A model generated the notes under the pieces. That model ran no database searches, was not told the origin of the DNA, and saw only the letters and a list, made by a program, of their open reading frames with translations. This document shows positions 18,150 through 22,964 of a stretch of 55,824 nt of DNA, piece by piece. The stretch's first letter is position 1, and every line of letters starts with the position of its first letter. A program made the position numbers and the translations under genes. Source of the DNA: Escherichia virus TH28; the sequence record MT446402.1, one strand, 5' to 3'.

Positions 18150-18998
18150 GTTTCTCTCCAGTTAAATTTAAGTAAGTGTCCTGACGTGGACTATTACGAA
18201 CATTACAATACATTGGCTTAAATGGTGTTTCCACTGCGGCCAAGACACTTATTAAATTTGATTCGAACCGCCCAAGTGAATCAGCCTTGTTTATGGGGAC
18301 CATCGGGGAAAAGTATAAACCCGCTTAATGCTCGCATCATGTTTGAACATTAAGAACCCTGACTTGCATATTTCATGTGAATAGGGGCATAGTCTATGTT
18401 TAATAGCTAACACCGGACAAGGAGGATTCCAGCTTAGAGCCTGAACTCAGTTCCCGACACATCACAATCAGCGCAACTAAGCCGTATCGCTACGGTATGC
18501 CAGACGCTAACTTGAGCCTTTTTGGACAGAGGCATAACTGTTTGGAAAGTGGTGGATTCGGTGAACTCCGCGTTCACAATTACACAGTCGGACTCGGATG
18601 CTTCATCCCTATCCCATCGTGCAGGTTTCATTAACTCTACGAATCCATTGAATTCGGTGACCAGTACGTTGGTCAGACGCTGTGGCCTTTACGCGGCCAA
18701 CGTGCCATTAATGCTGGCAAGACAGAGCTAACGTTCTCAAGCACTTTTGTCTAGGTCTGTTCCCGGCCACTGTTCTAGGAAGTGACTACCTGAATTTCAC
18801 GCATTCAATACGGGGCTTCCGTCCTCGGAGGCAGCAATTTCAATTGTTATGCCCAGAGCAATTGCAGGAATTACACCTACCATGCTACAAGTAGCTAGAG
18901 TCTCGTTATTTAAAGTCACGCACTCCCTCGACTATATTATACGTGTATTTAAAGTCCCGTACCGGACTGCCAAATGAAATGCGATGGCGAGCATTTGT

Positions 18999-19211
18999 TC
19001 ACTCACTGTCGGGTAAGTTAGAACACTTTTGTGCCCACGTCTCATTGTGGACTAAAATCTGTGTTTTGGTTTCGCGTGACAAAACTTTCACTTCTGCAAC
19101 ATCCAAATAGATTGGTTGTGCAATCAAGCAATAATCACTTACGAACCCACTTTGAGAGCAACTCACTATCGACATTGCTATCAGAACTGCTAGACACTTC
19201 TTTCTGAACAT
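18999..19211 (-). CDS. o-spanin-like outer-membrane lipoprotein
   Basis: Internal start MFRKK, hydrophobic stretch, lipobox IVSC; out of frame and overlapping 19135..19371. Confidence 0.45.
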   Translation of the reverse strand: MFRKKCLAVLIAMSIVSCSQSGFVSDYCLIAQPIYLDVAEVKVLSRETKTQILVHNETWAQKCSNLPDSE

Positions 19212-19371
19212 GCGATTTAATCTCGATAGATTCCTTAATAGAATCGAATTGCTTCTCTTTGGCTTCCTGACGCTCCTCGGCTTTGCCTGAGCTTTTGCCT
19301 TTGAGGAACACTGCAATAATAATACCCAATGCAGTAAGGACGCCAAGAATAATTGACTTAAGCTGTTGCAT
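19135..19371 (-). CDS. i-spanin-like protein
   Basis: 78 aa with N-terminal transmembrane segment IILGVLTALGIIIAVF then charged region; overlaps lipoprotein ORF in another frame. Confidence 0.45.
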   Translation of the reverse strand: MQQLKSIILGVLTALGIIIAVFLKGKSSGKAEERQEAKEKQFDSIKESIEIKSHVQKEVSSSSDSNVDSELLSKWVRK

Positions 19372-19379
19372 GAATCACC

Positions 19380-19622
19380 TTAGATGGCGCACGCACCACT
19401 TGAACAGTCGTTATCACCAGCACCAGGAACGATTGCTTCTTCGTCCTGCTTCTTCTTGAGTTCTTCGATTGCTTCTTCGGCAGCACCGAAGTCTAGGTTA
19501 TCAAGTGCATCAAAATCCATGAGGACTCCAGTATTGCGGTTATTGGAATGATTGCCAATGTAAGAGTCGAACTTACATAACACCCCGTCGAGTGTCGTCT
19601 TCCCATTTAGACGAATTGGCAT
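19380..19622 (-). CDS. hypothetical acidic protein (internal start of ORF 19380..19658)
   Basis: Annotated ORF start would overlap the tRNA-like element; Met at 19622 avoids overlap. Confidence 0.35.
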   Translation of the reverse strand: MPIRLNGKTTLDGVLCKFDSYIGNHSNNRNTGVLMDFDALDNLDFGAAEEAIEELKKKQDEEAIVPGAGDNDCSSGACAI

Positions 19623-19628
19623 TAAGGG

Positions 19629-19721
19629 TGGACGAGGTTGGGTTCGAACCAACGACACATCTGTCGAACAGATTGCTCTACCTGACTAAGCTCTGGAGCA
19701 GACCTTCTGAGCTACTCGTCC
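19629..19721 (-). tRNA. tRNA-like element, 93 nt, with extra sequence in the D region
   Basis: Minus strand: 7-bp acceptor stem GGACGAG/CTCGTCC, U8-A9, D-stem halves GCTC..GAGC, T-arm GTTGG-TTCGAAC-CCAAC, discriminator A; about 21 extra nt between the D-stem halves; possible anticodon UCG. Confidence 0.4.
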
Positions 19722-20592
19722 AAAATTGGGTGGGTTTTGGTAACGCAGGTTTTCCCGAACTGCGAGGCTTGTAGAATCAGTGAGCCGCCTGTTTGGTATC
19801 TTCGGCCTGCCGTGGATTGATGGTCCCGACTCACTTCATCTCAGGTACGAGGCACTACTTTGCGAGTGCAAGCAGGTGTTGAACCCAAGTACCAACAGGC
19901 AACCTAATTTATTCCACCGTTGTGGAAACCATTGGTTAGAGCAGTTTATTTCCATGCTCAGGGCAATTCACTTTAGGGCGAATTAGGTTATACAGTGCAG
20001 CTTCGAAGTCGCTGCCACAGGCTTGAGATTCCTGTGTGGAGGGAAATCCAAAGGAGCACTTCCTCAAGGAGTTACGTTTCACATTGGCATAGCTTCTCAC
20101 ACTAAACCAATTGAAGACATTCCAGTGTGCTCGTCCGTCCTCCGGAAATATCCAACTGCATAATTAAGTTTGTACTCTGTCACATCCCTACGCGCACTGA
20201 GGGACTTAAGTCTGCATTACATCGCAGAATACAAATTAATTATTGCTCCGATTTATTAATCACATCTCGAAGCCACAATGCGCCAAATTTGGTTACATGG
20301 GATTGGAAGACCACGGAGAGAACTTAAATTTAATTAAGCTGCAACTCGCATTTCAGAATCATTTGCATTTATTTTAAATGAATAAAACAGCCGCATGATA
20401 ACGAATGAAAACTACTTCAATGAACACTCTTGTCGGGGCCACGAGATTGGGCATCGGCCTACCTCCCAACTCTAATCACAAGAATGCTCATTGAAGCCCA
20501 CTCACTCTGGAATGGGTTCAAGGCAGCACCGGACAACTTCCAGTGCACGCCAGATCGATTTAGCTTAGTCTCTCAAGTTTGCCATCGGCAAC

Positions 20593-20931
20593 TTAGAATA
20601 CCGGAGCTTCTTCAACAGCAGCTTCTGCTACTGCAACAGCGGCTTCTTCTTCGACCTTAACTTCTTTCACGGTGTCAAACACAGTGCGTTCAACTTCCGG
20701 ACAACCGGCTTCAACCCACGGCAGGTAGAATGCCAGGAATGCAGCAGCGGTATTGGTCTGCATTGAGCGAGAACGGTCAATCAGCTTGTTGGTGTTTGCG
20801 AACGCTTCAACAGCAGCTTCAATTTTAGCGCCGTTTTCCAGTTTAAAATCGTGTGCGTTACACTCAGCTTCACTCAGGAACAGGGAACCATCGTTAGCTT
20901 CGTACTGAGTTACGGTTACAATCTTAGCCAT
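20593..20931 (-). CDS. hypothetical protein
   Basis: 112-aa ORF, acidic Ala/Glu-rich C-terminus; 17-bp motif 77 nt upstream. Confidence 0.45.
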   Translation of the reverse strand: MAKIVTVTQYEANDGSLFLSEAECNAHDFKLENGAKIEAAVEAFANTNKLIDRSRSMQTNTAAAFLAFYLPWVEAGCPEVERTVFDTVKEVKVEEEAAVAVAEAAVEEAPVF

Positions 20932-22329: not shown

Positions 22330-22964
22330 AGGAACTCTCCAATTTTCGATTCAGTGTTTGTGACTTCTCTTCTCATCTTTTGGCCCAGGAACAGGCCACA
22401 GGGTAGCGCAGGAAGGCCGAAAATCGGGCCACTGCCTACCGTTTGTGTCAATTCTGGATAACTGCATTGGCGAAGGGTTACTCCCGTTAGGGTGCGATAC
22501 GCTAATCACATGAGTGTCGTCGCCATACGGCTCAGGCGTGTCACAGAGGCTTTGCAACCCTTCCCAATACATTCACCCAAATCCCAGCGTTGGCGTAGCT
22601 GGTGGCTCGGTTTTGTGCGGATTATGCCACTCTAAGCCCTGTTTGTCCGACTTTCTCGGAGCACCAGCGACTTGTGGCACAAACCTATTTTCGAATGACT
22701 AACATAAGCATGAGGCATAACCCTCTAATTATTCAGCCCTAACAGCTTGCTTATTTAGTACCAATTCAACCCAATACATCGACCTATAACAAGTGATTAG
22801 CTTCTGCGAAGAAGTATTCTGGCCCTTTGGCCTATGTTAAAAGATAAGTGTATTTGATGGAAACATTCCATCGAAAATAACTTTGTAGAATGAGTTGAAC
22901 ATTCTCGCACGTTATCGGCCGTAACGGTCTACCGAGTTACAAAGTTATTATCTGATGTTGTTTC

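Follow-up and report, generated by a model that had tools for sequence, protein, structure and literature searches.

Transfer-messenger RNA (tmRNA) and SmpB form the main ribosome-rescue and protein quality-control system of bacteria, and tmRNA influences the growth of the phages lambda-immP22 and Mu. Here we describe a tmRNA-like RNA in Escherichia virus TH28, a Carltongylesvirus (Chaseviridae) phage whose record MT446402.1 supplied the 55,824-nt stretch of DNA that was analysed (the window). Its gene, which we call the tag RNA, is ~180 nt long and lies at 20420-20240 on the minus strand. With the one-piece tmRNA (SsrA; RF00023, clan CL00001) it shares an A-rich spacer, U-5 A-4, a GCA resume codon, a 10-codon tag of the form ANDx...Ala, a stop codon within P5, and H-type pseudoknots after the message. 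Unlike that RNA, it lacks an acceptor stem, a T-arm and CCA, and with these the capacity for alanylation and for tmRNA-type binding of SmpB and EF-Tu; an antisense arm replaces pseudoknot 1, two downstream pseudoknots are present rather than three, the length is ~180 nt rather than 363, and the score lies under every Rfam threshold. Judged by its sequence, the tag RNA is a chimera of a 5' arm directed against tmRNA and a body homologous to the message half of tmRNA, with which the phage appears either to block the tagging of stalled proteins by its host or to re-programme it.

A second point of comparison is the two-piece tmRNA of alpha-proteobacteria, cyanobacteria and some beta-proteobacteria, in which the template and the aminoacylated part are likewise carried on separate, paired chains. 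There, both pieces come from one gene of one organism and pair via the acceptor stem and P2, whereas the partner proposed for the tag RNA would be a complete host tmRNA, bound at its pseudoknot 1/message region. An acceptor piece of the two-piece type was not found beside the tag RNA, a conserved G.U at the third pair being the only resemblance.

Phage RNAs that pair with abundant host regulatory RNAs, as the tag RNA is predicted to do, have precedents in AgvB and AsxR of the Shiga toxin (Stx) phages of enterohaemorrhagic E. coli. These are prophage anti-small RNAs, or sponges, that pair with Hfq-dependent small RNAs and carry no message. We know of no prophage sponge that targets tmRNA, and of no viral factor that manipulates tmRNA/SmpB. 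Among 543 RefSeq phages surveyed with tools centred on the tRNA-like domain, ssrA was reported in mycobacteriophages only and in no enterobacterial phage (Hudson, Lau & Williams, 2014; PMC4131195); Bxz1-like phages and Bacillus phage G have full tmRNAs, phage G being named from outside that dataset together with mycobacteriophage DS6A, which has the tRNA-like domain only (PMC4131195). The DS6A RNA is also a phage tmRNA derivative, proposed to interfere with host trans-translation (PMC4131195), and it represents the opposite half of the molecule: the tag RNA keeps the message and pseudoknots and adds an antisense arm. Finally, ribosome display and cell-free translation make use of synthetic anti-tmRNA oligonucleotides, which inhibit trans-translation in vitro (PMC3384345); they share the complementarity of the phage arm and its predicted suppressive effect, but are man-made DNA and supply no replacement template. 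Searches for tmRNA that are centred on the tRNA-like domain overlook a whole class of tmRNA derivatives, to which the tag RNA belongs.

A conserved tag reading frame

The tag frame of the window (20366-20334, minus strand) reads GCA AAU GAU UCU GAA AUG CGA GUU GCA GCU UAA, encoding ANDSEMRVAA followed by a stop codon. The peptide closely resembles ANDENYALAA, the tag of E. coli tmRNA, and its frame has neither a start codon nor a Shine-Dalgarno sequence. A set of 99 distinct family copies was used for statistics on the tag frame, its context and the duplexes described below. Exactly ten codons followed by a stop were present in all 99, with TAA as the stop in 96, and the 21 different peptides encoded all fit the pattern A-N/K-D/E-x5-A/V-A. 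The final alanine codon is GCN, with all four wobble bases seen, and the remaining two frames are not conserved and vary in length. An AUG-initiated frame overlapping the tag was ruled out, its length ranging from 4 to 31 codons. The tag is under coding-type constraint. A hidden Markov model (HMM) of the family aligns with E. coli ssrA at nt 80-128 only, in register with the tag.

The sequence before the resume codon is also conserved. At positions -5/-4, UA is found in 94 of the 99 copies and CA in the other five; the counterparts in E. coli tmRNA are U85 and A86, which set the resume frame. In the window, U(-5)A(-4) is held in a small putative hairpin, UUUAUU-CAUUUAA-AAUAAA (20368-20386, minus strand; read from the sequence), that abuts the resume codon, and copies of the L134 type have UUUAUC/GAUAAA at the matching place in the alignment.

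Family tags keep the N-terminal AND or ANE, while the C-terminal LAA has often become MAA, VAA or AVA. SspB reads N and Y residues of the ssrA degron, and these residues are altered in the family tags. Since both the SspB-read residues and the C-terminal LAA change, an altered proteolytic fate of proteins carrying a phage-encoded tag is plausible.

Complementarity of the 5' arm to host tmRNA

Upstream of the tag, the window carries an arm, AGUAGUUUUCAUUCGUUAUCAUGCGGCUGUUUUA (20383-20416, minus strand), that is complementary to E. coli tmRNA nt 80-108, a target made up of the A-rich spacer, AGUC, the resume codon and codons 1-6. Small loop-outs aside, an invariant 5' motif of the family, AGUUUUCGUC..GUU(A/U/G)GCGACUUUGCGG(N)UUUUUAG, corresponds to E. 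coli ssrA in reverse complement, and its target extends from the 3' half of pseudoknot 1 over AGUC and the resume codon through codons 1-6. The oligonucleotide usually employed against ssrA presumably targets the tag-coding region that the phage arm also covers. A short-word blast against ssrA gave nothing but noise apart from the arm and the tag.

The mean duplex energy of the 99 arms with ssrA nt 56-130 is -38.0 kcal/mol, compared with -19.7 kcal/mol for the same arms with their own messages and -18.7 to -21.0 kcal/mol for five control targets (the reversed target and four other ssrA segments). The extended and specific complementarity by which an antisense RNA is recognised is thus present in the family arm (-38.0 vs. 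about -20 kcal/mol). Host ssrA was a better partner than the copy's own message in 99/99 cases, and the site was at about nt 55-107 in 74 of them. The possibility that the arm masks its own message intramolecularly was ruled out, the duplex energy being at background. Per-nucleotide pairing is 86-100% at ssrA nt 65-80 (a few bulges aside), 86-91 and 97-105, and near zero at nt 81-85. It is only 18-65% at nt 92-96, where AAACG is common to the host and phage messages, as expected if the arm avoids pairing with itself. The end of the intermolecular helix lies 10-13 nt from the phage resume codon in 91/99 copies, a spacing similar to that in tmRNA, where ~11 nt separate pseudoknot 1 from the resume codon. 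With E. coli ssrA the window arm gave an RNAduplex energy of -30.1 kcal/mol in the register seen in other members.

This complementarity fits equally well an RNA that is purely an inhibitor, whose arm would block tmRNA or trigger its cleavage by RNase III and so shut tagging down, and whose tag frame and pseudoknots would serve as a scaffold, act as a decoy for tmRNA-binding factors or be a slowly decaying relic. Synthetic anti-tmRNA oligonucleotides do inhibit (PMC3384345), the lack of a tRNA-like domain documented below suits such a role, and no unprecedented ribosome step would be required. However, pure inhibition leaves unexplained why all 99 copies hold a 10-codon frame with a stop, a GCN resume codon and U(-5)A(-4) while encoding 21 peptides in distant families, and why the distance from helix to resume codon is like that in tmRNA. 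Pure inhibition is the simpler reading and the main alternative, but a rather unlikely one.

The arm follows one host tmRNA variant

Within the arm, GUAGUUUUC or AUAGUUUUCG is found in E. coli phages, and the corresponding sequence of the Erwinia phages Y2 and Faunus is GAAGUUUUCG. If the arm is matched to its host, a host tmRNA with GAAAACUUC, encoding Asn-Phe in place of Asn-Tyr, is therefore predicted. We scanned one genome per species for 185,579 species, requiring a tmRNA 5' end followed 65-95 nt on by GAAAACTTC. Three matches were obtained, in Erwinia piriflorinigrans, Pantoea sp. App145 and one 'Enterobacter sp.', and ARAGORN reads the tags of these three tmRNAs as ANDENFAPAALAA or ANDENFALAA. 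In the Erwinia case, then, UAC to UUC in the tmRNA is matched by U to A in the arm.

Duplex energies agree with this pattern. The Y2 arm gives -28.6 kcal/mol with its own host type vs. -24.4 kcal/mol with the other, the Faunus arm -29.7 vs. -25.3 kcal/mol, and the window arm -30.1 kcal/mol with E. coli tmRNA vs. -28.1 kcal/mol with that of Erwinia. Each arm prefers its own host type by a margin of 2-4 kcal/mol. Another host variant, the ANDETYALAA-type tmRNA, also exists (two loci) and is taken up below.

The body folds into a P5 hairpin and two pseudoknots

For the structure, an alignment of 54 copies with at most 95% mutual identity was used. RNAalifold returned a hairpin belonging to pseudoknot 2 (PK2) and an unexpected helix, CGCANU/GN'UGUG. 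When the outer P5 stem, both PK2 stems and stem a of pseudoknot 3 (PK3) are taken together, 97.5% of alignment cells are paired vs. 86.5% in shuffles, and none of 500 shuffles reached the observed value. Sliding the 3' partners by 1-3 columns drops pairing to 32-46%. Compensatory double changes occur in 13 of the 19 pairs of P5, PK2 and PK3 stem a. On the strength of this pair covariation across the stems, the body consists, like that of tmRNA, of a stop-enclosing P5 and, after it, H-type pseudoknots, here two in number.

The P5-like hairpin encloses the stop codon and lies at 20316-20347 (minus strand) in the window, where the register of the window's clade is shifted and was read by eye. Its outer stem covaries (CUGG/CCAG, CUGA/UCAG), with 91.5% of cells paired and double changes in 4/4 pairs. 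PK2 (20283-20315, minus strand) consists of the hairpin CGUGG-UCUUCCAAUC-CCAUG, whose loop CCAA (20306-20303) pairs with UUGG (20286-20283). Stem 1 is 98.5% paired with three compensatory pairs, and stem 2 is 99.5% paired with all four pairs compensated (CCGA/UCGG, CCAA/UUGG, CCAG/CUGG, GUCG/CGAC).

PK3 (20245-20282, minus strand) combines CGCAUU/GAUGUG (stem a, the helix returned by RNAalifold) with GCUUCGA/UCGGAGC (stem b) and has an invariant loop, AUUAAUAAA. Pair 195:213 of stem a covaries as CG (34 copies), UA (12) and GC (7). Stem b occurs in at least eight unrelated complementary versions, among them GCCC/GGGC, GCCCUGA/UCAGGGC, the GCUUCGA/UCGGAGC of the window, and GGCGGGAG/CUCCCGCC. 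For pseudoknot 1, candidate pairings were found by eye and none had RNAalifold support; the antisense arm occupies that position.

Recognition and distribution of the family

The initial lead was an Rfam scan at relaxed E-values, which gave weak, sequence-only matches to tmRNA models at 20279-20429: alpha_tmRNA at 17 bits (cut-off 50) and tmRNA_permuted at 18.9 bits (cut-off 47). A 'mir-153' match from the same scan is merely a chance alignment to the long upstream hairpin. At gathering thresholds, Rfam made no call on the tag RNA, in the window or in nine related loci. The family HMM has a single match in the window (20416-20244, E = 2e-28) and no second copy there.

The ~180-nt tag RNA is the only part of the region that is kept outside the genus. 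It is present in Erwinia and Pantoea Chaseviridae, in Ackermannviridae, in Klebsiella siphoviruses and in one Vibrio phage. A blastn search with a prophage copy as query matched 779 GenBank phage records, whose hosts include Salmonella (274), Escherichia (216), Klebsiella (120) and Erwinia (55), and which take in CBA120-type Ackermannviridae, Felix O1-like and N4-like phages, P1 and lambdoid prophages. In IMG/VR, at least 120 contigs match a gapped pattern made from the 3' part; this replaced an earlier 14-mer pattern that was non-specific. By megablast, 144 of 5426 complete E. coli genomes contain the tag RNA, with no annotation at the site. Judged from the open-access literature, this large family of phage and prophage RNAs of Enterobacterales has not been described before, and it stands unannotated in hundreds of phages, including laboratory and therapy phages (P1 and Felix O1-, CBA120- and N4-like phages) and prophages of pathogenic E. 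coli.

The usual neighbourhood is tRNA genes, frequently tRNA-Arg(UCU). Phage P1 (AF234172, 68.88-69.35 kb) has an unannotated member with the tag ANDDLMMVAA, located in the C1-controlled leader of the ban operon between the annotated 'dicF-like region' and the tRNA-Asn/tRNA-Thr genes. In lambdoid prophages, the copies lie 3' of pR'/tR' and 5' of the holin gene.

Such positions could be read differently, with the element as a captured ssrA fragment that is functionally unrelated to tmRNA and serves as a leader, processing site or spacer of phage tRNA operons, the likeness being accidental. It does sit in tRNA clusters and late-operon leaders, and homing endonucleases and other genes insert around it. 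Yet the frame and three covarying structures are kept across phage families that share almost nothing else, a sign that the RNA itself is under selection, and the arm follows the Erwinia tmRNA variant and does not pair with its own message. We consider an accidental likeness improbable.

As a separate observation, Vibrio phage vB_VhaS_MAG7 (about 700-900 of the locus analysed) has a short stand-alone version with an arm of the window type and a 13-codon tag, ANDESNGEMRLVA. It also has hairpins and a Rho-independent terminator, and PK2 and PK3 are absent.

No tRNA-like domain accompanies the tag RNA

In tmRNA mode, ARAGORN made no call at the element in 250 loci (2.0 Mb), while the E. coli ssrA control was found; the lone exception in the run was a dubious tmRNA call downstream of the element in swi2. 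An acceptor, T-arm and CCA were sought with ARAGORN and by eye in the flanks, in the repeated modules described below and in the tRNA-like genes of the window, and nothing consistent was found. A good sigma-70 promoter in SUSP2, VLCpiS13b and swi2 puts the start of the RNA a few nucleotides ahead of the conserved GUUUUCG, and with so promoter-proximal a 5' end no 5' acceptor strand is possible in these three. Without a tRNA-like domain, the tag RNA cannot be charged or enter the ribosome alone, and for the same reason we do not count it as a tmRNA. It does retain all the features that bear on a ribosome about to resume on a tmRNA message.

In all lineages, 19-20-bp helices bracket the tag RNA. 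In the minimum free energy (MFE) fold of the window, the upstream one is a 19-bp hairpin, CUUCAAUGAGCAUUCUUGU ... ACAAGAGUGUUCAUUGAAG (20415-20496, minus strand), whose 3' strand runs into the arm. The downstream one is a 19-bp AU-rich hairpin, AUAAUUAAUUUGUAUUCUG ... CAGAGUACAAACUUAAUUAU (20160-20243, minus strand), the counterpart of CACAACAGGUAAGAGCAUUG...CAGUGCUCUUUCCGUUGUG elsewhere. In other phages the flanking helix has the form CACAACAGGUAAGAGCAUUG[variable]CAGUGCUCUUUCCGUUGUG, with a T-arm-like hairpin in some tips, and a cloverleaf-like unit ('module B' below) often comes after it. We infer that these helices are processing punctuation, cut by RNase III or, on tRNA-like shapes, by RNase P/Z. 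The flanking helix with its G.U was also considered as an alanine acceptor stem; we abandoned this idea, since the 5' strand is missing from promoter-proximal copies and the position of the helix end varies.

A related proposal is that the tag RNA belongs to a self-sufficient two-piece or permuted tmRNA of the phage, whose tRNA-like half would come from such a helix ('module A' below) or from neighbouring tRNA-like genes. The helix GAGCAUUG/CAGUGCUC has a conserved G.U as the third pair from the tip, some tips are T-arm-like, and the tag RNA is always found among tRNA genes. Against this stand the ARAGORN result (the one dubious call and the control aside), the lack of an Rfam match, the impossibility of a 5' acceptor strand in SUSP2, VLCpiS13b and swi2, the absence of a T-arm from most tips, and a CCA that is not encoded. 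The two tRNA-like genes of the window have A3:U70 and C3:G70 as their third pairs, neither being G3:U70, and the antisense arm would be left unexplained. We give this proposal little credence.

Several further features of the locus were noted. Modular arrays of tRNA-like RNAs lie 3' of the tag RNA in more than six loci. 'Module A' takes the form of a long helix whose tips vary and in some cases carry T-arms, and 'module B' is a cloverleaf mimic, UGUGGUG-AA-UGCGCAGGCUGAUGCGC-[80-100 nt]-GCCGGAGAUCAGCACCGGC-CACCACA. Both are at times tandemly repeated, the arrays end at genuine tRNA genes, and neither module is in Rfam. The tag RNA locus is also an insertion hotspot. Mangalitsa has a superinfection-immunity gene at the downstream hairpin, the IMG/VR contig UViG_2859044976_000002 has an HNH gene inside PK3 with its target partly duplicated, and DE15 and 4HA13, relatives of the window phage, have free-standing HNH homing-endonuclease genes inside or adjoining the tag RNA.

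A possible substitution of the tmRNA template

Docking on host tmRNA followed by substitution of the template is our best reading of these data, held with confidence that approaches but does not reach even. It is favoured because it is the sole explanation that draws on every part of the RNA. Transcription would begin by read-through from the phage promoter at 21027 in the window, or from the RNA's own sigma-70 promoter in other phages, and the transcript would be trimmed at the long flanking hairpins. The RNA would then anneal to host tmRNA, the intermolecular helix replacing pseudoknot 1 and concealing the host resume codon, and the phage resume codon would come to lie ~10-12 nt past the helix, spaced as in tmRNA. 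Ribosomes rescued by host alanyl-tmRNA/SmpB would resume on the phage template, and with the window RNA the tag added would be AANDSEMRVAA in place of AANDENYALAA. The sequence data establish the family, its structure, the constraint on the tag, the complementarity and its match to one host variant; annealing in vivo, exchange of the template and any consequence for proteolysis are inferred. More tentatively worded, at least six unrelated phage groups (Chaseviridae, Ackermannviridae, Felix O1-like, N4-like, P1, and lambdoid together with other siphoviruses) might carry such a 'tag-swap' RNA, making host tmRNA a hybrid two-piece tmRNA whose alanine-charged tRNA-like half and SmpB would come from the host and whose message would come from the phage.

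Several points weigh against docking and substitution. The evidence for them is computational throughout, and substitution needs the ribosome to resume on a template that is merely base-paired to tmRNA. The window arm belongs to a weaker class, its -30.1 kcal/mol comparing with -24.4 +/- 3.1 kcal/mol for shuffles, of which 1/30 was as good. Host tracking rests on one substitution, and the ANDETYALAA-type tmRNA is not cleanly compensated in the Salmonella phages SP116 and SeSz-1. The wobble variation in codons 7-10 is partly accounted for by the location of these codons in the P5 helix. Finally, the literature consulted was open-access full text, in which no tmRNA-like or anti-tmRNA phage RNA, and none of the tag strings, is described.

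If the host's tagging is indeed blocked or re-programmed, the tag RNA would add a new layer to host take-over, could alter what becomes of truncated proteins in infected as well as lysogenic cells, and would offer a natural model for designing programmable tags or inhibitors of tmRNA. Under the same condition, defence systems that have SmpB-like domains, such as CoCoNuTs (PMC11090510), might plausibly take the RNA as their target or trigger. If the tag is swapped, every ribosome rescued during infection or lysogeny would add a C-terminal peptide chosen by the phage and not the host degron; as a trans-acting template for trans-translation the RNA would be the first found in nature, and this viral take-over of ribosome rescue would likewise be the first known.

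The surrounding ORF-free sequence

The tag RNA lies within sequence that a preliminary description, made from the window's letters, had singled out as almost free of open reading frames (ORFs). With both strands checked, no ORF longer than 76 aa is present in 18150-18990, 19722-20590 or the further stretch 22330-22960, which bears out the gaps it described, and the true genes nearby are all on the minus strand. Over this region the window is 100% identical to Escherichia viruses TH23 and TH33 and ~90% identical in DNA to phiEcoM-GJ1. The gaps are common to phiEcoM-GJ1, ST32 and SKA49, where they are unannotated or have merely tiny hypothetical ORFs, and Erwinia phage Faunus, of a different genus, has an equivalent gap between the spanin and the next gene. 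A blastn search of 18150-20592 against E. coli genomes found no similarity.

Two of the stretches had also seemed more GC-rich and structured than their surroundings. The GC excess proved small, 0.44-0.51 vs. 0.40-0.45 in the surroundings. Structure beyond that of shuffled sequences was found for 19622-20592 (MFE z = -5.1, with 0/20 shuffles equally good) and 22330-22964 (z = -5.6), and was not found for 18150-18998 (z = -1.2). The hairpin quoted as an example, GCAGC-GACTTCGAA-GCTGC, is at 20015-19997 on the minus strand. As to what the sequence encodes, the description had offered non-coding RNAs or decayed genes. For 19722-20590 the former holds, given the covarying family RNA, the tRNA-like genes and the hairpins. 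Of the checks it proposed, the Rfam scan yielded zero matches at gathering thresholds, and comparison with related phages supports P5, PK2 and PK3 of the tag RNA through compensatory changes.

Decayed protein genes, or small proteins that have escaped recognition, are a very improbable account of the stretch. Small ORFs are annotated in relatives (gp30 of GJ1, gp33/gp34 of ST32, gp35/gp39 of Mangalitsa), and frame-corrected tblastn, a comparison that had been put forward as a possible refutation of a non-coding role, does locate the GJ1/ST32-type ORFs in the window. However, these ORFs, which begin with GTG or TTG and are located outside the tag RNA, are interrupted by stops or frameshifts in the window at ~90% DNA identity; no frame is kept, and indels between relatives have lengths that are not multiples of three. 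A PHROG search of the ORFs that others annotated in the gaps gave zero family matches, while the flanking ORF 20593-20931, as positive control, matched phrog_17419 (7e-56).

Phage RNA polymerase promoters of the GJ1 type, ACATTAGTTGGA (consensus AAACATTAGTTGGA...), occur on the minus strand at 23124-23105, 22984-22965, 21359-21340 and 21027-21008, and none was matched inside 18150-20590. Since no such promoter lies inside, the ORF-free stretch is most likely transcribed by read-through from the 21027 promoter, which precedes ORF 20931-20593.

Other elements of the ORF-free stretches

Downstream of the tag RNA, 19722-20159 (minus strand) appears to be a genus-specific structured RNA that includes the hairpin 20015-19997 and forms part of the z = -5.1 fold; the GJ1/ST32 ORFs annotated within it are broken in the window. 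The preliminary description had noted one tRNA-like element here; such an element is present, and there are two. The first, a tRNA-Arg(UCG)-like gene (19627-19721, minus strand), has an insertion or duplication of ~20 nt in its D-loop. Its Rfam tRNA score is 25.6 bits, below the 29-bit cut-off, and the match is partial (model positions 9-63) because of the D-loop insertion. The GJ1 counterpart is annotated 'tRNA-Arg, may contain an intron' and is called by ARAGORN, which leaves the window copy uncalled. The second (19553-19621, minus strand) has an aberrant anticodon loop and is an ARAGORN 'tRNA-???', its anticodon being left undetermined by that program. Both have UCGAC in a loop and may represent tRNA mimics that do not decode or variants that evade nucleases.

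The ORF-free stretch at 22330-22964 (minus strand) is a 635-nt structured leader directly 3' of the phage RNA polymerase promoter 22984-22965, and it could be assigned to no family. In phiEcoM-GJ1 this leader is interrupted by an HNH endonuclease gene, gp24 (annotated 'SbcC'), which the window and Mangalitsa lack. The remaining stretch, 18150-18998 (minus strand), had no Rfam match and no blastn match in E. coli genomes. It is a conserved ORF-free region of 850 nt in which invariant blocks shared with Faunus are separated by large indels, and a 41-nt piece at ~18938-18898 is 92.7% identical in the Erwinia phages Fifi44 and pEa_SNUABM_27.

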